Source: Candidatus Undinarchaeota archaeon
GTDB taxonomy: Archaea > SpSt-1190 > DYHY01 > CAZGQF01
DNA length: 64,000 bases
Direction: 5' to 3'
Assembly: GCA_964527545.1 (NCBI GenBank)
Contig: CAZGQF010000002.1
Span: 23,452-87,451 of the forward strand
Numbering within the stretch: position 1 is the stretch's first letter; every line of letters begins with the position of its first letter. The notes below the pieces were generated by a model. It saw only the letters and a list, made by a program, of their open reading frames with translations, searched no databases and was not told where the DNA came from. Both the position numbers and the translations under genes were made by a program. Below, in pieces: positions 6,790 through 63,833 of the stretch.

Positions 6790-6805
6790 GTGATGGAGAC
6801 CACCA

Positions 6806-11088: not shown

Positions 11089-11107
11089 TTTTATCCCAGC
11101 AGTTCTC

Positions 11108-11577: not shown

Positions 11578-11613
11578 TCCATGGACTGGAGGGATTCAAA
11601 GCGGTCAATGTCC
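11578..11613. repeat. Truncated copy of tRNA-Ala 3' end plus GGTCAATGTCC module
   Basis: CCATGGACTGGAGGG is identical to 11839-11853 in the tRNA-Ala gene; followed by a degenerate T-arm and GGTCAATGTCC, which recurs at 63507-63517. Confidence 0.6.
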
Positions 11614-11716
11614 TGTGACTCCGTCACAGGCTGGAAGGAAACTTCGTTTCCGACATCCCCGCGAGCCTGTGCTGTCTTTGATAGCACCAAGAAATTTTCT
11701 TTGGGGTTGGACAACC

Positions 11717-11743
11717 CCCTAATTGAGCGGAGCTCAATTGGGC
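11717..11743. repeat. Quasi-palindromic motif CCCTAATTGAGCGGAGCTCAATTGGG (copy 1)
   Basis: Inverted repeat ATTGAGC/GCTCAAT; near-identical copy in opposite orientation at 63682-63706; preceded by palindrome GGGGTTGGACAACCCC. Confidence 0.6.
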
Positions 11744-11841
11744 GCAATCGAGCTATATTGGAAACATTGTTTCCTACTATCGTACGAAGCTCTGCTTCGT
11801 AGATGCTCGATTAGCGTTTCTTTGGAAAAGAAAGGGGGCCA

Positions 11842-11915
11842 TGGACTGGAGGGGATTTGAACCCCTGGCCGCCTCGATGCGAACGAGGCGCTCTACCAGA
11901 CTGAGCTACCAGCCC
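11842..11915 (-). tRNA. tRNA-Ala (anticodon CGC)
   Basis: Manual fold: acceptor GGGCTGG with G3:U70, D arm GCTC-AGTCTGGTA-GAGC, anticodon arm CCTCG-UUCGCAU-CGAGG, T arm AGGGG-TTCAAAT-CCCCT, discriminator A; 74 nt. Confidence 0.85.
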
Positions 11916-11994
11916 GTGTGTTTACCTATGCGAGCGCCGTTGGCGAAGCCAACGAGCGCCCCAGCGCCGGCCGATGGGTTGCGGCCGCGTCTGT

Positions 11995-12015
11995 ACCAGA
12001 CTGAGCTACCAGCCC
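11995..12015. repeat. Duplicated 5' segment of tRNA-Ala (21 nt) without a matching 3' half
   Basis: ACCAGACTGAGCTACCAGCCC at 11995-12015 is identical to 11895-11915 (tRNA positions 1-21); downstream sequence is GC-rich and lacks a CCAGCCC/CCAGTCC acceptor strand. Confidence 0.55.
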
Positions 12016-12047
12016 TTGCAGAAATCTCGGCCACGTCGCTTAAAAAA

Positions 12048-13004
12048 CTATAGAGAAGTCGGTGGTTTCAGCCATCTCTCAAGCCAGAGATAGGCGTTCT
12101 CCCAGCTTTTCCTGTCGAAGTGGTGGCCGCCCTCGAACCAGGCAAGCTCGAGGCTGTCTTCCGCGCCTTCCTTTACGTAGGACTCCTCCAGCACTCCGTA
12201 GGCCCTCTCCACAGCCTTCTTGGGGAAGTTCTCGTCCTGCACGGCGGAGACCATCATCATCGGCCTGGGCGCGACCAGGGAGGCCACCTCTGGCAGGTCC
12301 GTTCTTTCGAGCAGGCCTGGGATGTAGGGGAGGAAGCAGTGGTAGACCCGCGTCTCCAGTATCTCTGGAAAGGAGCCCATGGCACAGCTGGCAACGACCG
12401 CCCCTAATCTCTCGTCCAGGGCCGCCGCCATCCAAGCCTGCATCCCGCCGAGCGAGTGGCCGGCCGCGCCTATGCCCTTGACGAACGACAGGGAGGAGAG
12501 GTAGTCCGCACATGAGATGACGTCCTCGACCATAGTCTTGGCGATGCAGGAGCCGTGGAGCAGCGCTCTTGTCGCCTCGAACCTCTCGTCCCCGCCAGGC
12601 AGCCTCTCCTCGCTCGGCGTCACGTTGGGGTCGTGCCTCTCCTCGAAGCAGATGGAGTCGGGCGCGAGTACAGCAAAACCTCGCCGGGCGAGCTCCCTGC
12701 CGAAAGGGATGGAACCGTTCTCTGCGTTGTAGTCTCTCCCGTCCACGGGCAGCCCCATCACCTCGCTCTTCCCGACTTCGTACTGGAGGTCTGCCTGGTG
12801 GAGAGCGATGACAGCCGGCCAGGGCCCCTCCCCCTCCGGAAGGGCGAGGTAGGCGGGGATCTCCCTGTCGGTCTTCAGAAGGAGCTTCTTCAGAGTGAAC
12901 CCTTCCTCGTCTCTCTCCTCGCCCTCCTCGACGGAGAGCTTCTTGTTCCTTCTCAGGCCGCCCATCGCCTTCTCGAGGAAATGTGTCAGCTCTTCTCTCT
13001 CCAT
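12048..13004 (-). CDS. Alpha/beta-hydrolase (dienelactone hydrolase/esterase-like)
   Basis: Nucleophile elbow GHSLGG, C-terminal His; start set at ATG 13004, one nt after the upstream gene stop. Confidence 0.6.
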   Translation of the reverse strand: MEREELTHFLEKAMGGLRRNKKLSVEEGEERDEEGFTLKKLLLKTDREIPAYLALPEGEGPWPAVIALHQADLQYEVGKSEVMGLPVDGRDYNAENGSIPFGRELARRGFAVLAPDSICFEERHDPNVTPSEERLPGGDERFEATRALLHGSCIAKTMVEDVISCADYLSSLSFVKGIGAAGHSLGGMQAWMAAALDERLGAVVASCAMGSFPEILETRVYHCFLPYIPGLLERTDLPEVASLVAPRPMMMVSAVQDENFPKKAVERAYGVLEESYVKEGAEDSLELAWFEGGHHFDRKSWENAYLWLERWLKPPTSL

Positions 13005-13005
13005 T

Positions 13006-14472
13006 TCACACCTCCTCCAGTTCGTAGATGAAAACATTTTCGTCGCCGTAGACTCTCTCAAGGCCTTCAAGCTCCTCGCCGCGGGCCGCCCTGAAGAGCA
13101 GAGTCTTCTCCGCCTTCTCTGTCGGCTCCCAGTCCTTTAGGTAGGGCGAGCTATCTCCGCTCGAGGCGAGGGAGATGGCGTAGAGGAACTTTCTGTCCTG
13201 CTGGGAGACGAGGAGGTGGGAGGCGCCAAGCTCTTTCATCGCTTTCGCAGTCTCCAGCCCTCCCTCCGCCAGCAGGGCGTCCGCCACTTTTCGCACCCTC
13301 TCTTCCGGGTCGCAGAACTCGCACTCGACCTCTCTGAGCTCCTCTTCGCTCATCGCCGCGTACTTGGCGACAGTCTTCAGCACTGCTCTCGAAGGGCCGT
13401 CGATGACGACCTCCCTGCCTGTCATGCCGTGGACCTGCTGGCCTTCATCCCACCAGCCCAGGAAGACAGCGTCGTCCGGCGCCTCGGCCGAGACCCACTT
13501 CAGTGCTGAGAAGAGCTCGTGGTTGACGGGAGCGCGAACTGCCACACCATCTCTCTCATAGGCGATCTCCTGCGTCTCAAGCATCTCCCTGGCCTCCTCG
13601 TCCTTTCTTTCCGTGCGGACTTCGAAGCCTTCTCCGTTTGAGGTTATCTCTACTTCGCCGTTGACCTCGTCGACGTAGACTGGCGCGTCGAACTTGGCGA
13701 GGTTCGCATAGGAGGCGATGGAGAAGAAGACTGCCTCGGGCGAGACGGCATCAAGGAACTCCGGGGAAGAGGCGTCGAGGAGGCCGTGGTGACCGGCCTT
13801 CAGGACGTCGGCGTCGAGCTCCTCGCCAGACGAGAGGAGGCCATCTTCGCACTGGAGGTTGCAGTCCCCTGTCAAGAGAGCAGAGAAGTCGCCGTAGGTC
13901 AGCTTGATGACCAATGAGTTGCGGTTGCCGTTGCCCTCCTCCTCTATCTCCTCCGGCCAGAGGACTCTCATCTCCACGGAGCTGTCCACCCGTATCTCGT
14001 CTCCTCTCTCAAGTTTTCCTTCAGGTTTCTCCCTCATCAGCTTTGCAATCTCGCTTCCCCCCACCACTCCCGCCTCCTCAATGTCGCCGTTGTGGTAGAA
14101 CTTTCTTACTGGAAAGTCCCGCTCGAAGAGGTGCAGGAGGCCCTGGAAGTGGTCGCCGTGCGGGTGTGTCAGCACCACAGCGTCGAGAGAGGCGACCCCC
14201 TTCTCAGCGAGGTGGCCCGTGATGTCGTTCTCACCGCCGTCTACCAGGATCCTCTTTCCATGAGGCGTCGTGATCAGGATCGACTCCCTGACGTCGAGTA
14301 GCGTGATGGTGAGGTTTCCGGCATCTTGGTTTTCCGCAGTTTCAAAACTGTTCTCCACCTCCGCCCCCGGCGACTCTTTCGTGATGCCCGTCTCTTCTGA
14401 TACCTCTATCTGCTCCTCGCCGACACAGCCTGCCGTGAGAATGGCGATCACGAGCAGGAGTTCCCATCTCAT
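13006..14472 (-). CDS. Secreted lipoprotein with metallo-beta-lactamase fold domain
   Basis: Signal peptide with lipobox-like LTAGC; MBL motif VLTHPHGDH and later GHHG; about 200-aa uncharacterised C-terminal region. Confidence 0.6.
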   Translation of the reverse strand: MRWELLLVIAILTAGCVGEEQIEVSEETGITKESPGAEVENSFETAENQDAGNLTITLLDVRESILITTPHGKRILVDGGENDITGHLAEKGVASLDAVVLTHPHGDHFQGLLHLFERDFPVRKFYHNGDIEEAGVVGGSEIAKLMREKPEGKLERGDEIRVDSSVEMRVLWPEEIEEEGNGNRNSLVIKLTYGDFSALLTGDCNLQCEDGLLSSGEELDADVLKAGHHGLLDASSPEFLDAVSPEAVFFSIASYANLAKFDAPVYVDEVNGEVEITSNGEGFEVRTERKDEEAREMLETQEIAYERDGVAVRAPVNHELFSALKWVSAEAPDDAVFLGWWDEGQQVHGMTGREVVIDGPSRAVLKTVAKYAAMSEEELREVECEFCDPEERVRKVADALLAEGGLETAKAMKELGASHLLVSQQDRKFLYAISLASSGDSSPYLKDWEPTEKAEKTLLFRAARGEELEGLERVYGDENVFIYELEEV

Positions 14473-14504
14473 CCCCAGACAAATGACCCCTCAAATAAAA
14501 AATC

Positions 14505-14996
14505 TCACAGCTTTTTCTTCATCACGACTATCCAGAAACTGACTCCCTTGTTTTCAGCGAGCTTCTCGCCGCTCTTCCTGAAGCCGAGCTTTCTGTAGAA
14601 GTCGACCGCAGTCAGGCTGGCGGGGACAACCAGCTCTTCCACTCCTCTCTCGCGCGCCTCTTCCTCCACCCTCTTCATCAGGGCGGAGCCGATGCCCTCT
14701 CCCGCCCTGTCAAGTCTCACGAAGACGCTCTGCACGCCTCCATCTCTCTTCAGGCTGGCCGTCCCAACCACCTCGCCGTCCTCCTCCGCGACAAGCACGA
14801 GCCTCTTTTCTGCCTTCCCTAGGATCTTCTCTGGGCTGTTCCCGCCGGCCAGCATCTCTATCACCTCGTCCGGATAGTCGCGGGAGTTGACCTCCCTCAG
14901 GGCACTTATCACCAGGTCGCTCACCTCTTCCGCGTCCTCCTCCCTGAACTCCCGGATTTTCAATCTTCCCTCTACTCTCCACGCGGATTTAACCAT
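14505..14996 (-). CDS. GNAT family N-acetyltransferase
   Basis: VRLDRAGEGIGSALMKRVEEEARERG acetyl-CoA binding motif. Confidence 0.65.
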   Translation of the reverse strand: MVKSAWRVEGRLKIREFREEDAEEVSDLVISALREVNSRDYPDEVIEMLAGGNSPEKILGKAEKRLVLVAEEDGEVVGTASLKRDGGVQSVFVRLDRAGEGIGSALMKRVEEEARERGVEELVVPASLTAVDFYRKLGFRKSGEKLAENKGVSFWIVVMKKKL

Positions 14997-15050
14997 AATC
15001 TACGACTTTCGAATGGTAAAACTCTTAAAACCACCTTTCTCTCTCTTTTC

Positions 15051-15431
15051 ATGGGGAAGGATTATGGCCATCTCTCCCGCGTGATGGAGGGCGCCGACAG
15101 GTTGGAGATAGAGTCCCGTGACAGCCGCATCAGTTGCAGGGTGCGCTTTGACGGGGAAAACGTGGAGTACTCTTTCCTTGGAATCAACCTCTGGGGGAAG
15201 AGACTGAAGAAGAGAGTGGGCAAGTATCTCAAAATACTGGGCGTGGGGGGGACAGAGTTCGAGCCCTTTGATGATGATGTGGTCGTGGGCGATGGGGAGG
15301 GCGGCATACCGACGCCGAAGCAGGTCAATGACTTTTATCACAGGCACAGGAGGAATTACAGCGGCAATTACCGTCTCGTTGTGGAGAAAAGCGGAGAGAC
15401 GAAAAGCTACATACTGAATCGTGGTCTGTGA
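15051..15431 (+). CDS. Hypothetical protein
   Basis: 126-aa ORF whose stop overlaps the start of the next gene (ATGA at 15428-15431). Confidence 0.4.
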   Translation: MGKDYGHLSRVMEGADRLEIESRDSRISCRVRFDGENVEYSFLGINLWGKRLKKRVGKYLKILGVGGTEFEPFDDDVVVGDGEGGIPTPKQVNDFYHRHRRNYSGNYRLVVEKSGETKSYILNRGL

Positions 15432-15916
15432 AGATGGAGAACAAGGCGTCCTACCAAGAGGAGAGCGTGGAGATAGGCGGAGAGTTCTATCCGAAGAGGT
15501 CCTTCAGGAGTCCCGGCAAGGACTCAGAGTACGTCTTCATCGAGATAGATGTCGAGGGCAGGACCTGCGAATCTGAGTGGTACCTGTCGAAGGTACTGCT
15601 CGACAGGCTCTCCTATCACGGCTCCTACGACGGCCACTACGCCCAGTTGATGCACATCAATGTCCCTGGCGAGAAGAGGAGGGGCGGCTTCGGGACCGCC
15701 CTAATCGAGTTCGGCGTCGAGGAGGCGAAAAGATACGGCTGCAGTCTCGGCTACGGCACTCTCCCGAGTGAAGACGGGAAGGGCCTCTACTCAACGGACG
15801 AGGTGAACAACGAGGCGAGGGGAGAGTTCTACCGCCAGTCGCTGGAGAGTTGCGGCTGCCGCTTTTTCTGGGACCTGGAGAGAGAGGGAAGGTTCATATT
15901 CCTCTTGCCTGAGTGA
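15428..15916 (+). CDS. Hypothetical protein with GNAT-like motif
   Basis: INVPGEKRRGGFGTALIEFGVEEAKRYG resembles GNAT motif A; translationally coupled to the upstream ORF. Confidence 0.4.
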   Translation: MKMENKASYQEESVEIGGEFYPKRSFRSPGKDSEYVFIEIDVEGRTCESEWYLSKVLLDRLSYHGSYDGHYAQLMHINVPGEKRRGGFGTALIEFGVEEAKRYGCSLGYGTLPSEDGKGLYSTDEVNNEARGEFYRQSLESCGCRFFWDLEREGRFIFLLPE

Positions 15917-15960
15917 GGCAGGCCGGGAAGGGATTTATACGAGGGCCGTGGGTGGTCTCC

Positions 15961-16338
15961 ATGCGACTCCTCTCCTTGTTGACGCTTCTCCTTCTGCTCT
16001 CGCCAGCTGCCGCGCAGGGGGGCGGCAGGGACTATATGCTCCTCCCCATCTCTCTCGCCTTGGTCATTCTCTACCTCCTCACTCTCGGCCTCGTGAGGGC
16101 GGGCGCTCTCTCCGTTGCCAGGCAGAAAGCCTTCTGGAACTTCGTCCTTCTAATTTCTTTCCTCATCTCAGGCGGCCTCGGCATCCTCCTCGTTCTCAGG
16201 ATCAACTACGGCCTGGCACTCTCTCTCCCCTTCAGCCAGCTCCGTCTCCACGTCGTCTCAGGCATCGTGATGGCGGTCGTCTCCGTTTTCCACGTCGTCT
16301 GGCACCTGCCCTACTTCAGGGCCGCCCTCAAGAGGTAA
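15961..16338 (+). CDS. Small membrane protein with signal peptide (hypothetical)
   Basis: ORF track 15913..16338; ATG at 15961 lies about 25 nt downstream of TATA-like GGATTTATAC (leaderless arrangement); signal peptide plus 3 hydrophobic helices. Confidence 0.45.
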   Translation: MRLLSLLTLLLLLSPAAAQGGGRDYMLLPISLALVILYLLTLGLVRAGALSVARQKAFWNFVLLISFLISGGLGILLVLRINYGLALSLPFSQLRLHVVSGIVMAVVSVFHVVWHLPYFRAALKR

Positions 16339-16340
16339 AA

Positions 16341-16350
16341 CCTTATATAA
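16341..16350 (+). promoter_or_regulatory. Archaeal TATA box (CCTTATATAA) upstream of the por operon
   Basis: Canonical TTATATA element preceded by A-rich BRE-like bases, about 110 nt upstream of the porGD start. Confidence 0.4.
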
Positions 16351-16459
16351 CCCATGCTAGCCCATAGCAACATGTTGCCCGAGAGCAAGGCGCTGTCCAT
16401 TCTCGAGGTAGCTGCAGTACTGGTGCGCTGAGCGCCCCAGGTTTTTCTGAGGTGTCCAA

Positions 16460-17443
16460 ATGCTAACATGTGAAGAGAGCAGAATAGAGAAAGAGAACGA
16501 CAGAGCTTGTGAGAACGGCCTTGCCTGGCTTGCCTTGGGCGGCCAGGGATCCGTCACTGCCAACAAGCTCTTGATGGAGGCGAAGAGCTGGGAGGGAGAG
16601 AGGTGCAAGGCGACCTACGCTCCGACTCCCGACAGGCGGGGGAAGCCCGTCTTCGTCGTCACCTTTTTCGGCTCGGAATCAGCAGTGAAGGGCTCCGACT
16701 TCAACAAGAAGGGCAACTACGTAGCCCTCCTTTCAGGAGGTTTCGACGACGCTTTCGAGAGGGTCGTCAAGGGCGGCACCATAATCGCCGACAAGAGCGT
16801 GACGGGGGGCTACGAGAAAATCTCTGAAGAGTTCCCGGAGATAGTGGACTACAACATCGCCCTCATTGACTGCACCTCCATCTGCAAGGAGAAAACGAAG
16901 GAGAAATTCGGCTTCGAGCCGACAGGGTTCGAGGTCAAGTCGAGCATGGCCGCCCTCGGCGCCATCTCAAGGATTGGTCTCGCATCACCGGAGAGCGTGA
17001 AGGGGGCGATAAGAGAGAGGTGGAACGGCAAGCTCGCTGATCTCAACCTCGAGATCTTCTCCGAGGCGTACGGGGCCGTGGAAATCTACGAGACGCCAAG
17101 GGCGGAGGAGCCAATCCATGGGAAGATCGGCAAGTCGGTCTCCCTCTCAAGCTTCACGGACGCGGCCATAGGCTTCGCCGAGAAGGGGAAGAGAGGAAGT
17201 CTTGAGATACCGATGCTGGACGGCGAGTGCGTCCAGTGCGGCTACTGCGAGGAGGTCTGCCACACCGGCGCCCTGAAGTACCGTCCGCACGGCAACGGCG
17301 ACAGCTACCTCTTTCTCTCGCTTGAGGTGGAGGGCTGCTCCGGCTGCGGCACCTGCGAGGAGGAGTGCGGATCAGGGGCCATAAAGCTTGCGCCGCGAGA
17401 GGAGGCGTTCGAGGGGGAGGGGATAGAGTATGTCCGGGAGTGA
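16460..17443 (+). CDS. 2-oxoacid:ferredoxin oxidoreductase, fused gamma-delta subunit (delta = 2x[4Fe-4S] ferredoxin)
   Basis: GGQG gamma-subunit motif near the N-terminus; C-terminal CVQCGYCEEVC and CSGCGTCEEEC ferredoxin clusters. Confidence 0.7.
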   Translation: MLTCEESRIEKENDRACENGLAWLALGGQGSVTANKLLMEAKSWEGERCKATYAPTPDRRGKPVFVVTFFGSESAVKGSDFNKKGNYVALLSGGFDDAFERVVKGGTIIADKSVTGGYEKISEEFPEIVDYNIALIDCTSICKEKTKEKFGFEPTGFEVKSSMAALGAISRIGLASPESVKGAIRERWNGKLADLNLEIFSEAYGAVEIYETPRAEEPIHGKIGKSVSLSSFTDAAIGFAEKGKRGSLEIPMLDGECVQCGYCEEVCHTGALKYRPHGNGDSYLFLSLEVEGCSGCGTCEEECGSGAIKLAPREEAFEGEGIEYVRE

Positions 17444-18623
17444 AGCGATGATGCAGGAGAGGCGACTCAACCTCTCAGGCAACGAGGCGGTCTCCTACGG
17501 CGTCCTGCTCTGCGCTCATCCGAAGAGAAAGAAGCGGCTGAAGGTCCCTGCCTATCCCATCACCCCGCAGACCAGGGTGATAGAGAAGCTCTCGGAGATG
17601 GCCGACGAGCATCCTGACAGGCTTGAGTACGTGGCCCTTGAGAGCGAGCACTCTGTCGGCGCCTTCCTTGCAGGAGCGGTCCAGACAGGGTCAGAGGCGA
17701 TGAGCGCCTCGTCAGGCCAGGGGATACTCTACATGGCAGAGGCCATAACATGGGCGGTCCACGCACGGCTCCCCATCAAGCTGGCAGTTCCCAGCAGGGG
17801 GCCGTTCTCAGGCTGGAACATACGCGCCGACGACACAGTGGTCCACTGCTACCTGCGGGACTCCGGCGCCCTAATCAGCCACGCCTCCACCTCCCAGGAG
17901 ATACTTGACGGCGTGGTCTTCGGCGCCAAGGTCGCGAACGAGGCGCTTTTGCCCCACATAGGGCCGAACTACGGCGGCTTCGAGGACTCGCACGCGGTCT
18001 CGCCAGTCACTCTCCATGACGAGGAGGAAGTGGCCGACTTTCTCGGTGACTATCGGCATCCCATCTACCAAGGCGACTTCACCGCGGGCGGGATGCAGAC
18101 ACCGGACACGTTCTACAAGGTCCACCGCGTCAAGGCTGAGAATGCCTTGGAGGGAGCCAAGGGCGCGATCCGGGAGCTGTCGAGAGAGTGGAACGAGAGG
18201 TTCGAGACGAAAAACTGGGGGATGATGAAGTACCACGGCCACGAAAAGCCGGAGACTGTCATGGTCTCCGCCGCCAACTCAATCGCCCAGTCGGCTGAGA
18301 ACGCTGTCGACGCCCTCAACTCGAGCGGAGAGAGGGTCGGCGTCGCCTCCCTCTACTGGGTGAGGCCGTTTCCAGACGAGGAGCTGGCAGAGCTGGCTGA
18401 GACGGCGGAGAGGCTGGTTGTCCTCGACAGGGCGACACTCTCGCCCTTGAGGCGCGACGTGGGGAGCTCCCTTTTCGAGCAAGGAGTCTCTCCGCGGGAC
18501 GTGGAGCTCTACGGGACGGTCCTCGGCCTCGGCGGCTCAAACGTCTCCCAGGAGGACCTCCAGCACATCTTCCACCTCGCCGAGCGCGGTGAGCTTGAGT
18601 TTCACTACGGGGTGGTCGCATGA
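17430..18623 (+). CDS. porA: 2-oxoacid (pyruvate):ferredoxin oxidoreductase alpha subunit
   Basis: Position between the gamma-delta and TPP-binding beta genes; N-terminal GNEAVSYG...; overlaps upstream gene by 14 nt. Confidence 0.75.
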   Translation: MSGSEAMMQERRLNLSGNEAVSYGVLLCAHPKRKKRLKVPAYPITPQTRVIEKLSEMADEHPDRLEYVALESEHSVGAFLAGAVQTGSEAMSASSGQGILYMAEAITWAVHARLPIKLAVPSRGPFSGWNIRADDTVVHCYLRDSGALISHASTSQEILDGVVFGAKVANEALLPHIGPNYGGFEDSHAVSPVTLHDEEEVADFLGDYRHPIYQGDFTAGGMQTPDTFYKVHRVKAENALEGAKGAIRELSREWNERFETKNWGMMKYHGHEKPETVMVSAANSIAQSAENAVDALNSSGERVGVASLYWVRPFPDEELAELAETAERLVVLDRATLSPLRRDVGSSLFEQGVSPRDVELYGTVLGLGGSNVSQEDLQHIFHLAERGELEFHYGVVA

Positions 18624-19570
18624 GCGGGGATGGCGCGCCAGCCACCAAGTGGCTTACCGGCTCGCCTTCGTGCCAGGGCTGCAGCAGCGAGCTCCTCTTG
18701 AGGAAGCTGATAGGCCACCTCTCCAGCGACGGGAAGAAGGTGGCAGTCGTTTCACCTGCCTGCTGTGCCAACGTCTATCCGATGGCGGACGACGTGACGC
18801 GCTTGGAGAACGGCATCTGGATGAACGTCCCCTTTGCCAGCGGGGCAGCCGTCGCCTCCGCTGTCTCGCGCAGCCTCCCTGACTACAGGACGCTTGTCTT
18901 CGCCGGCGACGGGGGGACCTTCGACATCGGCCTCCAAGCCCTGTCGGGCGCGGCGGAGAGGGACGAAGACATTCTCTACGTCTGCTATGACAACGAGGCC
19001 TACATGAACACGGGGACGCAGTCTTCCAGCGCCACTCCGCGCTACGCGAGGACGACCACGTCGCCGTCGGGAAAAGAGGGGAGGAAGAAGGACATCATGG
19101 CAGTCATGACGGCCCACCGCATCTCCTACGCGGCCACTGTCTCGCCCTCCTACGGCGACGACCTCGAGAGAAAGACCAAGAAGGCGATGAAGAGAGAGGG
19201 GACAAAGTTCTTCCACGCCCTCATCCCCTGCCCGCCCGGTTGGGGCTTCGAGCCGCGACAGAACGTGAGAGTGGGGAGGGAGGTGGTCAAGAGCGGCCTC
19301 TGGGGTCTCTACGAAGTGGAGAGAGAGGAAGAAAACGGAATGACAAGGATGGTGATGAAGGTCAGCCAGCCCTCCAAGAGCGTCGCCTTCTTCGGAAAGA
19401 GGAAGGGCGTGAAAGAGTATCTGAGCCTCCAGGGAAGGTTCAAGGGGATGAGCGAGGAAGAGGTGAGGCGCGTCGACGAGGAGGCGGAGCTCAACCTCAA
19501 CAGGCTGATGGCCCTGGACGGCAAGGACCTGCTCAATCCTGTCGGGAGCTACAGCTCCCCGCTCACTTGA
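18620..19570 (+). CDS. porB: 2-oxoacid (pyruvate):ferredoxin oxidoreductase beta subunit (TPP-binding)
   Basis: Cys-rich N-terminus (CQGCSS, CCAN) and TPP-binding GDGG...YDNEAYMNTG motif; ATGA overlap with porA. Confidence 0.75.
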   Translation: MSGDGAPATKWLTGSPSCQGCSSELLLRKLIGHLSSDGKKVAVVSPACCANVYPMADDVTRLENGIWMNVPFASGAAVASAVSRSLPDYRTLVFAGDGGTFDIGLQALSGAAERDEDILYVCYDNEAYMNTGTQSSSATPRYARTTTSPSGKEGRKKDIMAVMTAHRISYAATVSPSYGDDLERKTKKAMKREGTKFFHALIPCPPGWGFEPRQNVRVGREVVKSGLWGLYEVEREEENGMTRMVMKVSQPSKSVAFFGKRKGVKEYLSLQGRFKGMSEEEVRRVDEEAELNLNRLMALDGKDLLNPVGSYSSPLT

Positions 19571-33873: not shown

Positions 33874-36800
33874 TCACTGGGAAGGCGGCGTCCACTGATT
33901 GCCTGTCGTCCCCGGCGAGCTTCCTGTCTCTTCTCCTTTAAACCCCCCGCTGGTGGTGGTGTCTCCTTCTCCCCCACCGGCTTGAGTCTCCTTTTCCAGC
34001 CTGTTCCCCACAGGTATGATCTCTTCCGCCATCAGTATCCCGTTCTCCACTCTCCCCTTCACCATGCAGGACATGTCTGAGAGACCCCCTTCTGAGTAGA
34101 CCTTTATGGAGCCTGAGTCATCTGTCAGGTTGCCGTTGTGCTCGTCGACCGCCTTCAGGTAGCCAGTCAGGTAGACGATTGGGTACTCGTCCGGGCTCTC
34201 GAGGACTTTGGCCACGTTGACACCTTCATCTTTCTTCGTCTTGTAGAGGTAGTAGCCGCCCCCTGCCAGGGCGAGGAGCAGGAGGACTACCGCCGCAATG
34301 ACGACGGGAGAGATGCCCCCTCCCGCCCCCTCCACGTCGACTTCCTCTTCCACCTCCTCGCAGCGGTGGGTGGAGGTGTTGCACTCCTCCCCTTCCGGAC
34401 AGCCGCAGTCCTCGCAGCAGACGTCCTCTTCGCAGAGGCCGTCCCCGCACCTTGGCACTCTCTTGGCGACTGCGGTTGTGGTGATCATGTTCAGGCTCCC
34501 CTGGTCCAGGTCCTCCAAGAACTGGTACCTGAATGTCTTGCCTATTGTGTCGAGCTGATAGGCGAAGACTGGGTCGTCTTCGAAAACTATGGGCTGGTCA
34601 AAGAACCTCAAGCTGTCGGCGTCCCCTGCCAGGTCCTTTGGCACAGTGACGACTAGGAGGGCGTTCTCTTTCGAGCTTCTCAGCTTTGCGCTTATGGTGA
34701 TGGTTGTGTAGTAGTTTGTCTGGCCTCCCACCTCCCACTTCACCACTTCGGCCTCCACCTCGAAGATCACCTCCTCGTTGATGGCCTCCATGTCGGTCTC
34801 GTTGGTGTAGTTCTTCGCCAGCTCCAAGGCGACGTCGCTCGTGGTCAGCATCCTTGGCTCGTAGCTGTCCACGACGCTTGCGGTCCCTATCGAGCTGTCC
34901 AGGCTCGAGATCAGCGTCTCAGCGTCGCTTAACTGTCCTGCCGCTATCATGCTCTCTATCTCCTCGATCACCTCCTGCTCGATCTCAAGCGGGATCCCGA
35001 GGTCCCTTATCTCCTCAATCTTGTCCTTGAGTTCCTGGAAGTCGGTCTCTGCCTGGCTGACCTCCTCTGTCTCGTTGCCCTCTTCCTCTTCCCCCTCCTC
35101 CTCTTCCTCATCGTCGTCGCCCCCTCCGCCTATGAACCCCCCGCCGCCGTTCAGGTCGGGCTCAACGTCGACGGCGACATCGACCTCCCTGTCGCAGGCC
35201 TTCAAGGTAACAGTCCCTTCGAACCCCTCGTCGTCGGTCGGGACGTAGATCTCTATGGTCCTCGACTGGCCGGGTGTGAGGGTTATCTCGTCCTCGAGGT
35301 CGGTATACATCTCTTCCTCGTCCTCGTCGATCTCTACCTCAAGGGTGGTGGCGACGTTGCCTATGTTCTGGACAGACCTCCTGCTGGTCCCGCCCACCGT
35401 TATGTCCTCGTTGTTGAAAGAGCAGTCCAAGATTGTGGGAATGTCAAAGGTCGCGGAAGAGTTGATTGTCTCGCCGCTGCGGGAGAGGGCCGTGTAGCTC
35501 GTCCCGCTGGTCAGGGAGGCGTAGACAGAGTAGGTGCCGGGCGGGTTGGTCCTGTTTATCTTTGTCCTGCTGATGTCGGCGTAGTCCCCGCTGGTCAGGT
35601 CGATGGCCCCGTCCCACGTGACAGGGTATTTTGTGTTGTTGATGACGAGTTCGCCGTCGTCGTCGAAGATCTCGAAGCGGTAGGTCGCAGTCGCAGTCGC
35701 ACCTGTGTTGTTGAAGAATCCCTTCTCTATCTCCACCCAGTCGCCTATCTCAGCCTCGTCCTGGTCCAGCTCTATGGGAACCACCGGCGTGTCGAGCAGT
35801 GTCACCGTGGTCGTGTCTGAGAATGGAGTGTCGAAGTAGAAGGTCCGGGTCATATTGTAGCGGAGTGTGTAGACTCCTGCAGGGTCCGAGATATCGAACT
35901 CGTAGTTGGATGAGAATGTGGTGTTTTCGTAGGGCATTAGGGTATCTGAGTCTGACCTGTCGGTCCTGAGCCCGACGATCTCTGTATCCAACCAGAACGA
36001 GAAACCGTAGTAGCTCTGCAGCACGACCGACAGGTTGAGCGGGTAGGCGACCTCCGCCTTGACAGGAGTGGCCCACTTCACGTCGCTCACGTTCAGCTTT
36101 TTCGTCTCGAACTCCAGGTTGTAGGTGAGCTCCGAATTTGCAGGCATCGTCGCGTTCTCAGTCCAGTTGAGCCAGCTCGGCCAGGAGAACTCGAAGGGGA
36201 CAGCGTCGCCGTTGTAGGTCAGGTCGTAAGGTGTGGTGTTGTAGGTCGGCGCCTCGAAGCTGACAGAGACGTTGTCTATCTCCTTGCTTGCCCTGTTCTC
36301 CAGTGTCAGCTCTTCAACCCAGCTCACGTGAGTCTCGTTTTCGCTTGAGAAAACAGTGTCGGTCTCCTCCGTGAGAGCCGGCGCGGGCAGGTCGTAGGTG
36401 ACGTTGAACTTCCGCGAAGAGCCGGCGCCGAGGAAGAAGACCTCCTTCGCGAAGTCCCCCGTTGTGCTCGACGAGTTGTCGCAGTCGTCGCAGACGGTCC
36501 AGTTGACCCCCCTTATGTTGGTCGCGTCGTGCGGGACAGGAAAGATGGCCTGTATCGTCCCGCCGATGATCAGGTCGTTGACCACTGTGACGTTCTGCGT
36601 CCACTTGATGGGCTCGCCCTCCACTATCTCAGCGTTTCTCCTGTCGGTTCCGTTAACGTTCCTGAGGGAGGTGGTGTTGTAGTCTATGAAATAGTCTCTC
36701 TTCTCGCCCGCAGAGAGCGTCCCCACGTCGAACCAGACAGTGTCGTTGGTGGAGTTCTCAATCTTGTCGTACGCAAGTGGCGTCCCGTCCAGCGTGACCT

Positions 36801-39366
36801 CCTCAACGCTCGAGTTGGCGTCGATCTCGACACTCACGAAGCCGAACTCTGCAGGAGACGCCTTTGAGTTGTTGAGGGAGAGCGTGTGGCGGACGTTGAT
36901 GGTGCTGGGCTGGGGGAAAGGCGGGTTGGAGTAGCCGCGGAACTCTATCTCTTCGCCTCTCGAGAAGTCGTCAGTGTCTATCTCGTAGGTCCCAGTCCAG
37001 ACAGGAGTGCTGTTCCAGTTGCCTGCCGCGTCCCTCACTATGAAGGTGGCGTTGACCTCCGTGGAGTTGGGGAGCGACGAGAAGAACTTGATGCAACGGC
37101 CGTCCTCCACGTTGAGAGTCTCAGGCGTCTGCGCCGCGCCGTCGAAGTAGGCCGTTATGTTGCAATGCGTCGCACCACTATTGTCGTCGCTGACGTTTGC
37201 GTAGAAGACTGGCCTGTCGTTGGCCACCGTTTCGTTGACGGACGGCGAGACGCCTGTCACGTTCGGGTCTGTCCCGTCCACGGCGAGGTCGAGTCCGACA
37301 GTCAGGTTGGAGTAGCTGAAGCTGTCGGTCGCGTTGAAAGAGAGAGTGTGGTCGCCGCTGCCTCCAGGTATCTGGCAGGCGAGCGAGTAGTTGCCGTCAC
37401 CCGCCGAGCTGTCGATCCCTGCGCCGTCGTCCTTGAGCTCCGTCCAGCTCCCGCCGAGGGGAGTCAAGTTGAGTGTGAAGTTGGTGACCAAGCCGATGTC
37501 CTCCACTCTCGCGAAGACCTCGATCCAGTCGCCAGGCTTCACGACTGTGTCGTTGACCATGACGTCCAGTACGTCCGGCGCCGACCTGTCGATGGTGAGG
37601 TTGACCCGCTGGCTTGAGTTGTAGTGGCCGAAGGTGTCGTTGGCGAAAAAGATGATTGTCTGGTTGCCTTCCTCTGCCTCAGGCACGGTGTAGCGGGCAG
37701 AGTGGTTGCCGTCGCCCCCTGCGGCGTCTGGCTGGGAGCCGTCATCAAGAAGGCGGGCAGTGTTGAAGTCAACAATGTGCACGTAGGAGTAGGTTCCCGA
37801 TGCGTCGTAGTAGGTTATCAGCTCGTCAGTGCCGTCACCGTCACTGTCGATGGTCCCTTCCACGTAAAAACTGCTGATTATCTTGTCTGCAGTTAGGTTG
37901 AAGACGACGCTCCTGTTTACGAACGGATCGAAAAACCTTGAGTTGCCATAGTTGTTGCTGTCCGTGTAGACCAGCGTCTCCCTGTTTCCGCCGTAAAAGG
38001 AGCCCTTGCTCTGCGTTGAGGTTGTCAGCTCTCCGAACACGATCGGCGTATCAGCAATCTGTGTCTGGTTGTCGTAGAACTTCGAGTCGAAAATAATCTC
38101 CTTGCTTCCGTCCCCGTCGCTCTCGATGGCGACCAGGGACAACGAACTGGAGACCAACTCTGACGTGTTGTAGTACTCTTGTGTCTGGTTGTCGAAGATG
38201 TGGAGGTAGCTCGTAGTCGCATTCGAGTAGGCGATCTCCCCTGCACCGTCTCCGTCGATGTCGCCGCACACGAACTGCGAGGACTTTATGCTCGTATTCT
38301 CCAAGCGCCCTGTGGCGTTTTCGTAGATCATGACCCATTGTCCTGTTTTGTTCCTGAACAGTATCTCATCCGCACCGTCGCCGTTCACGTCGCAGAGATG
38401 GAGATACCCTGAGGCGTAATCCGTCACTGAATATGTCGTATTGGTCGAGTTGTCGAGGACGGCAACGTAGTAGCTGCTCATGTCTTCCGTGACGTTCAAA
38501 TAGACCACCTCGTTCTCGCCGTCGCCGTTCACGTCCCCGACTTGAGGCACAAATCCGAGCCTGCCGGTAGAGTCTGTCCTGCCGTTCGCAAAGTCCCTTA
38601 TCTCGATGGGAAAGCCAGTGGACCAGCTGCCCTCGGAGACGTTGTTGTAGACAAGTTCGTCCGCACCGTCGCCGTTCACGTCGCCCGATCCAAGCATGGG
38701 TGACCCTGTGTAGGTGAGCACGCTCGTGTTTGTCGATGCATGGTCGAAAGGCATCAACGCCTTGACGCCTTTTACATCACCGTCCGAGTTGTTGGCCATT
38801 GCATAGAGCTCGATGATTGAACCGTTTGTGACCAGCGTCTGGTTGACAGTGGCGTTGACAGTCGGCCAGGTTAGGTTGACATAGGTGTAGTTCTCTGCGT
38901 AGCAGGGCGCGTCTGTCGCGTTGTCCCGGGCGGTCGCGTTCCAGGTCACGTTGCCGTCTTTCCAGGCAGACATGAGGAGGGTTATGTTCAGGTAGTCGCC
39001 GGCGGTCGCATTCGGATAGTTTTCCTTGGGCGTGCAGTTGACTTTCTCCCTGTAGCCGTCGCTGTCCGAGTCCCAGACGCCGCACTCCCAGGCAGTCCCG
39101 TTCGCCTTCCCGGTCTCGTTCGACCACCATGTCGCCTCGGCGTAGGTGACATTGTAGTGCTCTCTCGGCGAGGTGATGTTCGAAAGTTCTGTCATGTTCC
39201 AGGACTCCGGCCCCTCGTTCCAGAGGGTGAAGTTGTAGTAGCGGGGGAGGGCAGACCCCACGTAGGCCGTCTCGTTGACAGTGAGATTTGCCGCGGCCGA
39301 GGCCAAGCCTAGCAGAAAGAGCAGGACCAGACCTTGCTTCAACACACGGAAGCAACTACAGACCAT
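33874..39366 (-). CDS. Giant integrin-like surface glycoprotein (FG-GAP-like repeats, Cys-rich stalk, TM, cytoplasmic tail)
   Basis: Signal peptide from ATG 39366 (track ORF extends to 39678); several D-x-N/D-G-D-G-x-x-E repeats; many N-x-S/T sequons; acidic linker; Cys-rich RCGDGLCEEDVCCEDCGC; TM VVIAAVVLLLLALAGG; about 110-aa tail. Confidence 0.7.
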   Translation of the reverse strand: MVCSCFRVLKQGLVLLFLLGLASAAANLTVNETAYVGSALPRYYNFTLWNEGPESWNMTELSNITSPREHYNVTYAEATWWSNETGKANGTAWECGVWDSDSDGYREKVNCTPKENYPNATAGDYLNITLLMSAWKDGNVTWNATARDNATDAPCYAENYTYVNLTWPTVNATVNQTLVTNGSIIELYAMANNSDGDVKGVKALMPFDHASTNTSVLTYTGSPMLGSGDVNGDGADELVYNNVSEGSWSTGFPIEIRDFANGRTDSTGRLGFVPQVGDVNGDGENEVVYLNVTEDMSSYYVAVLDNSTNTTYSVTDYASGYLHLCDVNGDGADEILFRNKTGQWVMIYENATGRLENTSIKSSQFVCGDIDGDGAGEIAYSNATTSYLHIFDNQTQEYYNTSELVSSSLSLVAIESDGDGSKEIIFDSKFYDNQTQIADTPIVFGELTTSTQSKGSFYGGNRETLVYTDSNNYGNSRFFDPFVNRSVVFNLTADKIISSFYVEGTIDSDGDGTDELITYYDASGTYSYVHIVDFNTARLLDDGSQPDAAGGDGNHSARYTVPEAEEGNQTIIFFANDTFGHYNSSQRVNLTIDRSAPDVLDVMVNDTVVKPGDWIEVFARVEDIGLVTNFTLNLTPLGGSWTELKDDGAGIDSSAGDGNYSLACQIPGGSGDHTLSFNATDSFSYSNLTVGLDLAVDGTDPNVTGVSPSVNETVANDRPVFYANVSDDNSGATHCNITAYFDGAAQTPETLNVEDGRCIKFFSSLPNSTEVNATFIVRDAAGNWNSTPVWTGTYEIDTDDFSRGEEIEFRGYSNPPFPQPSTINVRHTLSLNNSKASPAEFGFVSVEIDANSSVEEVTLDGTPLAYDKIENSTNDTVWFDVGTLSAGEKRDYFIDYNTTSLRNVNGTDRRNAEIVEGEPIKWTQNVTVVNDLIIGGTIQAIFPVPHDATNIRGVNWTVCDDCDNSSSTTGDFAKEVFFLGAGSSRKFNVTYDLPAPALTEETDTVFSSENETHVSWVEELTLENRASKEIDNVSVSFEAPTYNTTPYDLTYNGDAVPFEFSWPSWLNWTENATMPANSELTYNLEFETKKLNVSDVKWATPVKAEVAYPLNLSVVLQSYYGFSFWLDTEIVGLRTDRSDSDTLMPYENTTFSSNYEFDISDPAGVYTLRYNMTRTFYFDTPFSDTTTVTLLDTPVVPIELDQDEAEIGDWVEIEKGFFNNTGATATATYRFEIFDDDGELVINNTKYPVTWDGAIDLTSGDYADISRTKINRTNPPGTYSVYASLTSGTSYTALSRSGETINSSATFDIPTILDCSFNNEDITVGGTSRRSVQNIGNVATTLEVEIDEDEEEMYTDLEDEITLTPGQSRTIEIYVPTDDEGFEGTVTLKACDREVDVAVDVEPDLNGGGGFIGGGGDDDEEEEEGEEEEGNETEEVSQAETDFQELKDKIEEIRDLGIPLEIEQEVIEEIESMIAAGQLSDAETLISSLDSSIGTASVVDSYEPRMLTTSDVALELAKNYTNETDMEAINEEVIFEVEAEVVKWEVGGQTNYYTTITISAKLRSSKENALLVVTVPKDLAGDADSLRFFDQPIVFEDDPVFAYQLDTIGKTFRYQFLEDLDQGSLNMITTTAVAKRVPRCGDGLCEEDVCCEDCGCPEGEECNTSTHRCEEVEEEVDVEGAGGGISPVVIAAVVLLLLALAGGGYYLYKTKKDEGVNVAKVLESPDEYPIVYLTGYLKAVDEHNGNLTDDSGSIKVYSEGGLSDMSCMVKGRVENGILMAEEIIPVGNRLEKETQAGGGEGDTTTSGGFKGEETGSSPGTTGNQWTPPSQ

Positions 39367-39403
39367 TATTAAAGCTTTAAAGGGGCAGAGGGAGTTCGGG
39401 CGG

Positions 39404-39646
39404 GTGAGAGTCGAGGTCAAAGTCAGAACCAGCGCCCAAAAGGAGAGGATTGAGCTTGAGGACGGCCGCCTCGTCGTCTCCCTCAAGGAGCCAGCCAGGA
39501 AGGGAAAGGCCAATCTTGCCCTCGTGAAGCTCCTCGCCGGCAGGGCGGGCTGCTCTTCTGCAGAGGTGGCCTTTGTCAGCGGCCTCTCCTCGCGGAGGAA
39601 AGTACTTGAGTTTCCAGACTGCGAGATAGAGAAGCTGCTCGGATGA
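39404..39646 (+). CDS. YggU-like (DUF167/UPF0235) small protein
   Basis: VEVKVRTSAQKERIE...GKANLALVKLLA...VSGLSSRRKVLEF matches DUF167 pattern; in-frame GTG at 39404 proposed (track ORF from 39275 overlaps the signal-peptide end of the giant gene). Confidence 0.45.
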   Translation: MRVEVKVRTSAQKERIELEDGRLVVSLKEPARKGKANLALVKLLAGRAGCSSAEVAFVSGLSSRRKVLEFPDCEIEKLLG

Positions 39647-39830
39647 CTTTTGGCACGTTCGTGGCAAACCTCCCGCAATACTTATAAATGGCCTTTCTCT
39701 CCTCTCTGCAGAACTCACATCATCAGTTCGCATTCACTGTACATGGGAAGCGCCGGTTAACATTGATGTCTAGGCGCGGTTGCAGGGCAGCTCGGCTGAT
39801 TTTGCAGAGTTCTGAAGAAGGTGAAGAAGA

Positions 39831-58972: not shown

Positions 58973-60079
58973 TCAATATCTCCTGTTGTAGGCCAGCGTC
59001 AGCTTGGGGTTCTCTTCAAGGACCGCCCTGAACTTTTTGAGCTGTTTCACCCTGTACTTTTCCGCCGCCTCGTTTTTTGGGATGTGCTTTGAGAGCTGCA
59101 TCTCGATCATCTCCACGGTCGATGGCTCCATGATCACCTTTGTCTCTTTCACCTGCAGGAGACCGCATTCCTCGGCCTCACTCAGCATCCCGTCCTCTGA
59201 TGAGGAGAACGAGTACTTGTCGAAGAGGGAGAAGAGCATTTTTTCGAAGGCCTCCCTGAACTCGTTGTCTTCGCAGTAGTTCTTGACATTGCTGCAGAGT
59301 TTCTTGTAGCTGTGGAGGGCCCTCTTGAACTTGCTGGCCTGCTCCTGGTCGATCTGGTGCCTTGCCCTGCCCTGCGGGCCGGTCCTCACGAAGCCGGAGG
59401 CCATGTTGAAGAAGTCGTCGACCTGCTCGAGCTTGCAGAAGAAATCTGAAGTGTTGGCGTGGTTTCTGCTCGTCGTCCTCTCCTTCGACTTCTGCTTGCT
59501 TTCTGCGTAGGCGTCCCAACCGCCAAGGACGATCTCTATCTTGGAGAGAACTGTGAAGTCGACGTCGTTCTTGGAGATGGGGATCAAGTTCTTTCTGTAA
59601 GACCTCTCCGGGTCCTCGGACCTCTTTCTCTCTGGAACGGGGGCCACGAAGTCGCTGCCCCTCCAGATCTCGTTCTGTCCGTAGCCCGAAGGGGCGGAGT
59701 AGTTCAAATCCTTCTCTGCCTTCTTCTCCCTTCTTCTCCTCTCTCTCGTCTTGGGCGAGTTGACTTCGTCCACTTCGTCGCGTATCTTCTCGAAGTCCTC
59801 CTCCCCCACTTCAACGATGATGTGTACGTTGGTCTTGCAGCCTCCCCCCTCTTCCCAATAAGAGCGGAGCTTTCCATTGAGGTCGAACTTGGAATGCGGG
59901 TGGAGGCAGTCGATGGAGAGTCCCCCCTTGAGGTGTCTTTTGGAGGGGAAGCCCTGCCTAAGGACGGGGACTAGTTTCTTGAACGAGCCGGTCAGTTCGT
60001 AGTACCAGCTGTTGAGGCCTTTCTTCTTCCTAGTGACCTTTATCGTCTCTGACGGACCGTAGAGAACCTCTGCCTGCAT
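58973..60079 (-). CDS. Hypothetical protein (368 aa)
   Basis: Long ORF with normal local codon usage; no motif recognised. Confidence 0.45.
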   Translation of the reverse strand: MQAEVLYGPSETIKVTRKKKGLNSWYYELTGSFKKLVPVLRQGFPSKRHLKGGLSIDCLHPHSKFDLNGKLRSYWEEGGGCKTNVHIIVEVGEEDFEKIRDEVDEVNSPKTRERRRREKKAEKDLNYSAPSGYGQNEIWRGSDFVAPVPERKRSEDPERSYRKNLIPISKNDVDFTVLSKIEIVLGGWDAYAESKQKSKERTTSRNHANTSDFFCKLEQVDDFFNMASGFVRTGPQGRARHQIDQEQASKFKRALHSYKKLCSNVKNYCEDNEFREAFEKMLFSLFDKYSFSSSEDGMLSEAEECGLLQVKETKVIMEPSTVEMIEMQLSKHIPKNEAAEKYRVKQLKKFRAVLEENPKLTLAYNRRY

Positions 60080-63008: not shown

Positions 63009-63377
63009 CTAGAATCGCCTGAAGCTGCGCGGGTTCTGGACGTGCTTGTCGGAGACGTTGTTCTCGGTGTTGACCTCCTCCAGCTTCTCCTCCGACGGCT
63101 TCATGATCCCCCTCCTACCGAGGCTCAGCCTCATGGAGTTCCTGAAGACGTTGACGTAGGCGTGCTCGATGTCGTAGGTCTCCCCTATCTCCGCCTCCTT
63201 TATCGACTCGTTCCAGAGGGAGAGGATTATGGCGCCTGTCTCGTCGCCCACCAGGAACTCTGCCACGGTGAGCTGTTCGCCCCTCTTCGAGGTGACTTCC
63301 CTCTCATCGAGCTTCTCTACGATCTTGACATTCATGTCGACCCCTCGCGAGGCCGGGTTCAGTTCTTCGACTTTCAT
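63009..63377 (-). CDS. OB-fold nucleic-acid-binding protein (SSB/RPA-like)
   Basis: Single approx 120-aa OB-fold-like pattern (VDMNVKIVEK...AEFLVGDETGAIILSLWNE). Confidence 0.45.
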   Translation of the reverse strand: MKVEELNPASRGVDMNVKIVEKLDEREVTSKRGEQLTVAEFLVGDETGAIILSLWNESIKEAEIGETYDIEHAYVNVFRNSMRLSLGRRGIMKPSEEKLEEVNTENNVSDKHVQNPRSFRRF

Positions 63378-63472
63378 TCCTACTCGTCCCGCCTCAAAGC
63401 CGCGAGTTTAAAATGGTTTTGTGGCCCCTCACACTTGTCCGTGGGCAAGCGCGTGGCTTGATTGGGCCGCCT

Positions 63473-63495
63473 TGAAAACAGGAGCGCCGGGGATT
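63473..63495. repeat. Direct repeat 1 of tRNA-Ser 3' end plus trailer (23 nt identical to 63734-63756)
   Basis: TTGAAAACAGGAGCGCCGGGGAT occurs at 63473 and again overlapping the tRNA-Ser 3' end; followed by GGTCAATGTCC, shared with the tRNA-Ala locus. Confidence 0.7.
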
Positions 63496-63606
63496 GGATT
63501 CGCAGAGGTCAATGTCCCCTTCACAGCCTATCCTATCTTCGCTTCGCTCGATAGGAATCGATCCAATGGAGTTTCTTTCCTCTGCGGAGAGGGCCATATT
63601 AGGAAA

Positions 63607-63623
63607 GGAGCGCCGGGGATGGG
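63607..63623. repeat. Direct repeat 2 of tRNA-Ser 3' end (17 nt identical to 63742-63758)
   Basis: GGAGCGCCGGGGATGGG identical to the acceptor/T-stem segment of tRNA-Ser. Confidence 0.65.
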
Positions 63624-63681
63624 GTTCAAAGCGCCCTTTTTCTTTGAAAAGAAACCCAAATTGAACAGAGTTCAATTGGGC

Positions 63682-63706
63682 CCCATTGAGCTCCGCTCAA
63701 TTAGGG
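63682..63706. repeat. Quasi-palindromic motif CCCATTGAGCTCCGCTCAATTAGGG (copy 2)
   Basis: Reverse-complement match to 11717-11743; preceded by palindrome TTGAACAGAGTTCAA. Confidence 0.6.
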
Positions 63707-63745
63707 AGTCCCGCCTGCCAAAAAGAAACATATTGAAAACAGGAG

Positions 63746-63833
63746 CGCCGGGGATGGGATTTGAACCCATGTGAGACTGACGCCTCACGAGCTTTCCAGG
63801 CTCGCGCCTTAGACCGGACTTGGCTACCCCGGC
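63746..63833 (-). tRNA. tRNA-Ser (anticodon GGA)
   Basis: Manual fold: acceptor GCCGGGG/CCCCGGC, anticodon arm CGAGC-CUGGAAA-GCUCG, long variable arm GTGAG...CTCAC, T arm ATGGG-TTCAAAT-CCCAT, discriminator G; 88 nt. Confidence 0.8.

Follow-up and report, generated by a model that had tools for sequence, protein, structure and literature searches.

The stretch of DNA analysed here (the window, 64 kb) carries two tRNA genes whose 3' ends recur in the intergenic DNA beside them. tRNA-Ser(GGA) is an intact gene on the minus strand (63745/6-63833; ARAGORN; Rfam RF00005, 60.6 bits). tRNA-Ala(CGC) is also intact and on the minus strand (11842-11915; ARAGORN; Rfam, 67.3 bits). Elsewhere the window looks like a normal archaeal chromosome, encoding DNA ligase, CPSase, ATCase, POR and the like. 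The host is an uncultured archaeon from a DPANN-like lineage of which very little has been sampled. No database entry exceeds 68% identity to its DNA ligase, and the named matches, about 50% identical, belong to Altiarchaeota, Undinarchaeales and Woesearchaeota MAGs. The nearest available relatives are about 60-68% identical in protein and are not syntenic. The OB-fold gene next to tRNA-Ser has relatives in GTDB genomes that are 41-59% identical and lack an adjacent tRNA-Ser, and its homologues on Logan contigs (55-60% identical) are not syntenic either.

At the Ser locus, a repeat search found one direct-repeat family in three copies (63472-63500, 63598-63626 and 63733-63761), spaced by 126 and 135 nt. 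The initial annotation had described two extra direct copies of the tRNA-Ser 3' end, and this is confirmed. The exact 15-mer AGGAGCGCCGGGGAT lies at 63481, 63607 and 63742. These three occurrences in the window compare with 0.02 expected by chance, and 100 shuffles never yielded as many. The string quoted in that annotation was also right, but the tRNA portion is shorter than the 17-23 nt it claimed, amounting to 10-16 nt followed by trailer. We refer to the copies as R3, R2 and R1 from the gene outwards; all read on the minus strand. R3, the tRNA-proximal candidate att copy (63733-63761), comprises tRNA nt 58-73 plus 13 nt of trailer; the last 10-16 nt of tRNA-Ser(GGA) thus belong to it, and its exact 15-mer core is 63742-63756. 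R2, the middle candidate copy (63606-63626 by repeat search and alignment), matches the tRNA-Ser copy over 18 nt exactly, or over 21 nt with one mismatch. R1, the distal, displaced 3'-end fragment (63472-63500, by the same two methods), has 29 nt in common with it, with one mismatch. Expressed in tRNA numbering, the Ser copies run from nt 58, 61 or 64 to nt 73, plus 5 nt (R2) or 13 nt (R1) of trailer.

Read in the sense of the tRNA, the order at this locus is tRNA-Ser, R3, insert E2 (120 nt), R2, insert E1 (111 nt), R1 and then trailer and promoter. The DNA beyond R1 is the original chromosomal trailer, followed by the promoter of the OB-fold Ssb gene. E2 (63621-63740, minus strand) has a T-rich run, two 19-bp palindromes and the end GGGCGCTTTGAAC. 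Its T-rich run, on the tRNA side, now follows tRNA-Ser, while the GGGCGCTTTGAAC end adjoins R2. The two palindromes are adjacent (63659-63702, no strand) and read AATTGAAC-AGA-GTTCAATT and (C)ATTGAGC-TCC-GCTCAAT(T). E1 (63495-63605, minus strand) is unrelated to E2 and bears a conserved arm adjoining R1. The alignment score of E1 against E2 was 21, compared with 17.9 +/- 3.3 for the null, so the two inserts are not similar and therefore are not tandem duplicates. Neither do the inter-repeat segments resemble the body of the tRNA, RF00005 scoring the real tRNA alone; a family of tRNA-derived miniature repeats, which had been offered as one explanation, finds no support in segments that are unlike both the tRNA body and each other. 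What is found is three att-like copies flanking two unrelated inserts, with the middle copy in common and integration genes absent, as in accretion of CIMEs. A 117-aa ORF on the plus strand (63421-63774) runs through all three copies in one frame and encodes GAPG(I/M)GF three times. It stays in frame because the spacings of 126 and 135 nt are multiples of three. Pfam, PHROG and database searches gave no homologue of this ORF, which is probably no real gene.

An analogous displaced copy had been reported at tRNA-Ala, and it is there. The 15-mer CCATGGACTGGAGGG is present at 11579 and 11839, which places a second copy of the tRNA-Ala 3' end 260 nt downstream. The tRNA-proximal copy (11839-11853, minus strand) consists of nt 62-73 and the 3-nt trailer TGG. 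The displaced copy, the candidate distal att copy (11579-11593, minus strand), was identified by the 15-mer match and by alignment. Between them lies an insert of 245 nt (11594-11838, minus strand) with about nine perfect Watson-Crick hairpins in a chain. A tRNA-Ser-like sequence inside this insert was considered and discarded as lacking significance (p = 0.03), with 14 of 255 tiles of the window doing equally well. The distal displaced copy begins upstream of the next minus-strand gene at an identical distance in both loci, 103 nt before its start codon (63377-63480 and 11476-11579); this gene is the OB-fold Ssb gene at the Ser locus and a 122-aa ORF at the Ala locus. As the Ser and Ala flanks are unlike in sequence, the equal distance is probably a coincidence.

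tRNA-Ala also has a displaced copy of its 5' end (11991-12018, minus strand), which covers nt -3 to +25 and is identical at 26 of 28 positions (93%). The promoter lies on one side of this fragment and the gene on the other; between fragment and gene is a 72-nt insert (11919-11990) of 69% GC, which holds the hairpin CGTTGGC-GAA-GCCAACG. Since the native promoter stays with the 5' fragment, tRNA-Ala must be transcribed through it. In Thermococcales, pTN3-type integrases integrate at the 5' half of archaeal tRNA genes. The likeness to such integration is the displaced fragment (nt 1-24) upstream of an intact gene; the differences are that here only 72 nt separate fragment and gene, that there is no integrase remnant, and that the promoter remains with the fragment. 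A separate integration event, into the 5' half of the gene, probably left the 5'-end duplication as its scar.

The inserts of the two loci are related to each other. Directly next to the displaced copy, the Ser and Ala loci both have a 20-nt arm, GGACATTGACCKCTKYGAAT. Its Ser version, GGACATTGACCTCTGCGAAT in tRNA sense (63498-63517, minus strand), abuts R1, and its Ala version, GGACATTGACCGCTTTGAAT in tRNA sense (11594-11613, minus strand), abuts the displaced tRNA-Ala 3'-end copy; 17 of the 20 positions are identical. GGTCAATGTCC occurs in the window exactly twice, at 63507 and 11603, each time about 13 nt from a displaced tRNA-end copy, so that its sharing between the first Ser copy and the tRNA-Ala copy was correctly noticed from the outset. 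A 32-nt module, CCCTAATTGAGCGGAGCTCAATTGGGC.., is 94% identical (E = 7.7e-8) between E2 (63675-63706) and the Ala insert, where it takes the form of the palindrome module CCCTAATTGAGCGGAGCTCAATTGGGCGCAAT (11717-11748, no strand). The palindrome AATYGARC-N3-GYTCRATT is found three times in the window, against 0.12 expected, and always at the Ser and Ala loci. Within the 64-kb window, the arm (probe GGACATTGACCNCTNNGAAT) and palindrome motifs are thus confined to the two tRNA loci. Moreover, the whole E1-R2-E2 segment (246 nt) is collinear with the 245-nt Ala insert in equal orientation to the tRNA, the global alignment giving z = 4.0, compared with 0.9 for the reversed sequence. Both loci have the arm on the distal side, adjoining the displaced copy, and the T-run and palindromes on the tRNA-proximal side. 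The two ends of each insert consistently differ from each other; a search for terminal inverted repeats gave nothing significant in any insert (p = 0.06-0.8), and there is no match between the terminal 5-mers. The GC content of the inserts (0.45-0.50) is like that of other intergenic DNA and is therefore uninformative on their origin.

Further information came from an alignment (A1) of the three displaced ends and the 3' ends of the two real tRNAs. The T-loop/T-stem is where every displaced copy begins to match its tRNA, at nt 58 if one mismatch or indel is allowed, or at nt 61-64 if identity must be exact. The identity then passes the discriminator and enters the genomic trailer for 3 nt (Ala), 5 nt (Ser R2) or 13 nt (Ser R1). 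With one mismatch or indel allowed the duplicated blocks measure 19, 21 and 29-31 nt; the exact repeat is 15 nt at both loci. Past the gene end the copies have the genomic trailer (CTCCT..., TGG) where a mature tRNA would have CCA, so their template was DNA rather than mature tRNA. The DNA upstream of the identity block is non-tRNA sequence that is conserved between the loci. tRNA-Ser and tRNA-Ala have an identical 13-nt T-arm. As at att scars, a partial-tRNA direct repeat is present with one copy inside an intact tRNA gene, and identity begins at a recognised sublocation.

We think that the repeats are probably the attL/attR scars of site-specific integration, in which tRNA-Ser was used twice, and that the elements have decayed to integrase-less stubs. 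According to this model, a single family of integrating elements would have carried an attP core copying the 3' part of the host tRNA, beginning at about nt 58-64 and including the discriminator and the first few bases of the trailer. By recombining with the chromosomal gene, an element would have left the tRNA intact, its 3' end, trailer and T-rich terminator now coming from element DNA, and would have left the displaced 3'-end fragment at the far side of the insert. tRNA-Ser(GGA) would have been used twice, by tandem accretion, which would give the three copies, and tRNA-Ala(CGC) once. Loss of genes would then have reduced the elements to integrase-less stubs of 111, 120 and 245 bp made of att-adjacent arms. 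One arm would be GGACATTGACC..GAAT and the other the T-run with the 19-bp palindromes AATTGAGC-N3-GCTCAATT, which are plausibly putative arm-type protein-binding sites. E2 would be the later arrival. Its attP would have matched the chromosomal trailer through GTTTTCAA, whereas the identity of E1 stops at CTCCT; under the att model, this match is why R1 and R3 share 29 nt. Insertion would further predict empty sites in which tRNA-Ser is directly followed by CTCCTGTTTTCAAGGCGGCC and tRNA-Ala by TGGACTTCCCAGCC, and, if the units excise, a circular junction of the form ...GACCGCTTTGAAT-CCCTCCAGTCCATGG-CCCCCTTTC.

This is the best-supported reading, and it upholds much of the original proposal of stacked att relics from one element family that used different tRNA targets. 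The 3' fragments are in direct orientation, both tRNAs are intact and the repeats are far beyond chance. A fixed start in the T-loop/T-stem with a variable end (3, 5 and 13 nt past the gene) is the pattern of an attP/attB identity block. To judge from the alignments, the DNA adjoining the copies is conserved between Ser and Ala while the core is tRNA-specific, which, with the 32-nt module and the collinear inserts, best fits one element family. The insert ends, without terminal inverted repeats, resemble attP arms in their asymmetry. The Ala insert and the 5' duplication are, in addition, reproduced in independent Logan contigs. As to the machinery, no recombinase was found in the window, and no attP-bearing element among the viral, plasmid, phage and metagenome sequences searched. 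Repeats, tRNA register, arm homology, asymmetric ends and a window free of recombinase genes are the observations, from which we infer the action of an integrase; the type of recombinase, the order in which things happened, the idea that the inserts shrank by decay and were not miniature from the start, and any mobility today should be taken in the same conditional sense.

[quoted passage not shown] Related integrases change from one tRNA gene to another, with many such genes in use (PMC8371274), and phage Ms6 can be directed to the T-loops of other tRNAs by editing its attP core (PMC1762012). At bacterial tRNA 3' ends, both tandem accretion and the decay of elements to att-flanked forms without an integrase (CIMEs) are documented (PMC5704250). 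In archaeal genomes, integration has commonly left tRNA fragments behind (PMC9897764).

Several points count against the att model. In the 64-kb window there is no Pfam match to a recombinase family, and the searches turned up no virus or plasmid with an attP. A circle of only 111-120 bp could not recombine, so that the model must assume decay of these inserts. The near-equal, collinear inserts at Ser (246 nt) and Ala (245 nt) are odd for independent random decay, and the exact 15-nt repeat at both loci also fits a target duplication of fixed length. As to the first point, no ORF of about 80 aa or more in the window has a Pfam match to integrase, Cas1, PolB or transposase families, in agreement with the statement that no integrase gene is nearby. 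No ORF crossing the inserts matches Pfam or PHROG, so that no integrase gene was recognised within an insert. Remnants of an SSV-type integrase gene are not supported, since the arm motif is in different frames at the two loci. In Rfam, the tRNAs alone were matched, both at the gathering threshold and, on the two loci, at E <= 10. Pattern scans of viral contigs for the modules gave chance matches or none, one scan of metagenome contigs gave two unrelated matches, and blastn of the modules against plasmids and phages gave nothing. Across these viral contigs, plasmids, phages and the single metagenome-contig scan, an attP-bearing virus or plasmid was not found; the hope that the module would turn up in viruses or plasmids was thus met with chance matches only.

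The exact repeat of 15 nt leads to another possibility, transposition with target-site duplication by a casposon-like or other enzyme, which would use the T-arm as a 'leader' and make staggered cuts about 15 nt apart at the tRNA 3' end. Short non-autonomous units would be inserted, and repeated leader-proximal use would build a repeat-insert-repeat array. The A. boonei casposon target is a 15-bp segment with an adjacent 18-bp T-loop sequence at the tRNA-Pro 3' end (PMC5137440), and tandem casposon insertions sharing a target-site duplication, as well as solo-TIR remnants, are known (PMC4779613). The exact repeat of 15 nt at both loci equals the target-site duplication length of that casposon, the identical 13-nt T-arm would provide a common leader, and the repeat beside the insert varies with the target but the insert end does not. 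Nevertheless, no insert has significant terminal inverted repeats, and each insert's two ends are consistently unlike. tRNA-targeting casposon families have a fixed target-site duplication of 14-15 bp. Here the exact repeats are 15 nt at both loci, but the blocks of 19, 21 and 29-31 nt, with mismatches, suggest that the duplicated length may not be fixed. Cas1 and PolB are, moreover, absent from the window. We therefore regard a casposon-like insertion as unlikely.

It could also be argued that, whatever their origin, the inserts are functional modules retained by the host, either structured ncRNAs or DNA sites serving the expression of the tRNA or of the neighbouring gene, such as terminators, processing signals or protein-binding palindromes. 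Folding is the main reason to consider this. The Ala insert folds far better than shuffled sequences (z = -6.0 for the minus and -4.6 for the plus strand), 7 of about 22 perfect hairpins of at least 7 bp in the 64-kb window fall within the Ser and Ala loci, the palindrome AATYGARC-N3-GYTCRATT is restricted to them, and the T-run after each tRNA comes from the insert. The Ser region, in contrast, is no more structured than its shuffles (z = -0.5 and -0.7). As the stems are all perfect Watson-Crick and fold equally on both strands, there is no RNA-strand signal, and there is no Rfam match either. The copies of the tRNA ends would be left unexplained, and we find it quite improbable that host function accounts for the loci.

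A similarly slim chance attaches to the inserts being a living, hairpin-rich, non-autonomous family of about 110-250 bp whose enzyme, an integrase or a casposase-like protein, is encoded elsewhere. Such an enzyme would recognise the T-arm common to many tRNAs and insert at a fixed register, duplicating the tRNA 3' end; the resulting leader-repeat-insert arrays would be formally like a primitive CRISPR locus. The 15-nt exact repeats, the identical T-arms, the 245/246-nt sizes and the contig break at tRNA-Ala are compatible with it.

That break concerns two contigs of run SRR15425350, L077 and L082, both 100% identical to the window. L077 spans 3910-11846 and includes the displaced Ala copy and the whole 245-nt insert, while L082 spans 11841-19006 and includes tRNA-Ala with the upstream 5' duplication. 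They meet with a 6-nt overlap (11841-11846), precisely where the tRNA-Ala 3' end gives way to the insert. The break may reflect population heterogeneity, with occupied and empty alleles, or 3' halves shared among tRNA-Ala isoacceptors. It also counts in favour of the idea that the loci arose by local tandem duplication or slippage of the tRNA 3' end with its spacer, or that a metagenome assembly artefact joined alternative trailers. The regular spacing of about 130 nt and the metagenome-type assembly also speak for this, and the independent contig support concerns the Ala locus, with none for the Ser locus. Duplication is, however, at odds with the dissimilarity of E1 and E2 (score 21 against 17.9 +/- 3.3). 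Against an artefact, assembly k-mers usually exceed the length of these repeats (15-29 nt), the displaced Ala copy with its insert and the 5' duplication are each whole in independent contigs of 100% identity, and homologous arms at loci 52 kb apart would not be expected. Both variants are thus very improbable.

Four other candidates were rejected. MITEs have terminal inverted repeats with a short (2-10 bp) target-site duplication and many dispersed copies; the inserts have no terminal inverted repeats, and within the window their motifs are confined to two tRNA loci. CRISPR arrays have repeats of 24-47 nt, spacers of about 26-72 nt and many units; here three units of 15-29 nt, each a tRNA end, are separated by 111-120 nt. 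Tandem tRNA pseudogenes would have inter-repeat segments homologous to each other or to the tRNA body, which these loci lack, and a retroelement primer-binding site is contradicted by copies that carry the genomic trailer and not the CCA of a mature tRNA.

Returning to the probable att scars, they look like a known kind of genomic scar in an unusually small form. The attL/attR sites of tyrosine integrases at tRNA genes (Ms6, archaeal SNJ2, pT26-2-type) likewise duplicate a 3' fragment directly and leave the tRNA intact, start in the T-loop/T-stem and run past the gene end, and related elements of that kind use different tRNAs. The present loci differ in having no integrase gene, no cargo, inserts of 111-245 bp, a DPANN-like host and no known attP partner. 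CIMEs and accretion in Firmicutes (the ICESt1 family, tRNA-Lys islands) are likewise att-flanked with integration genes lost, and show three att copies from two successive integrations at one tRNA gene. However, CIMEs are kilobases long, bacterial and demonstrably mobilised in cis, whereas the units here are 10-100 times smaller. Casposon sites and solo-TIR remnants (Aciduliprofundum boonei tRNA-Pro, Methanosarcina mazei tRNA-Leu) likewise have a 15-nt exact repeat beside the T-arm, tandem use of the site and gene-less remnants; they are set apart by the lack here of terminal inverted repeats and of Cas1/PolB in the window, by the variable duplicated length with mismatches and by the asymmetric ends. 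The tiny size of the inserts, their near-equal, collinear form at tRNAs of two different classes, the density of palindromes and the host lineage distinguish these loci from known examples.

If the att reading is correct, the two loci would record how integrating elements of an unknown family invaded a DPANN-like lineage in the past. An intact virus or plasmid with its integrase could be sought in metagenomes with the conserved arms, GGACATTGACC..GAAT and the palindromes AATTGAGC-N3-GCTCAATT, as probes. Such fragments are of the kind that confuses tRNA annotation and breaks assemblies. The broader significance is modest unless the units are mobile or were inserted by a casposase-like, leader-directed mechanism.

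Other features of the window were observed in passing. A third tRNA gene on the minus strand (1792-1880; Rfam, 55.3 bits) contains an intron and is left unnamed by ARAGORN. The start codon of a PH-domain ORF adjoins its 3' end without a gap, and no fragment copies of this tRNA gene occur anywhere in the window. The host lineage is poorly covered by protein families. An ORF of 1934 aa (33874-39678, minus strand) has a faint FG-GAP repeat match alone, and two others, of 368 aa (58973-60079, minus strand) and 485 aa (2337-3794, plus strand), match no Pfam family. Finally, the intergenic DNA at 5790-5900, upstream of a hypA-like gene, contains the hairpins GCACCCC-CGAA-GGGGTGC and TGGTTGGGC-CGAA-GCCCAACCA and the imperfect ACTGCGCG..CGCACAGT, parted by the direct repeats GGTGGGTGAGAA and AGTGGGTGACGAGAA. 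No Rfam family matches these hairpins at the gathering threshold, and the region may be an unannotated small RNA or a repeat array.
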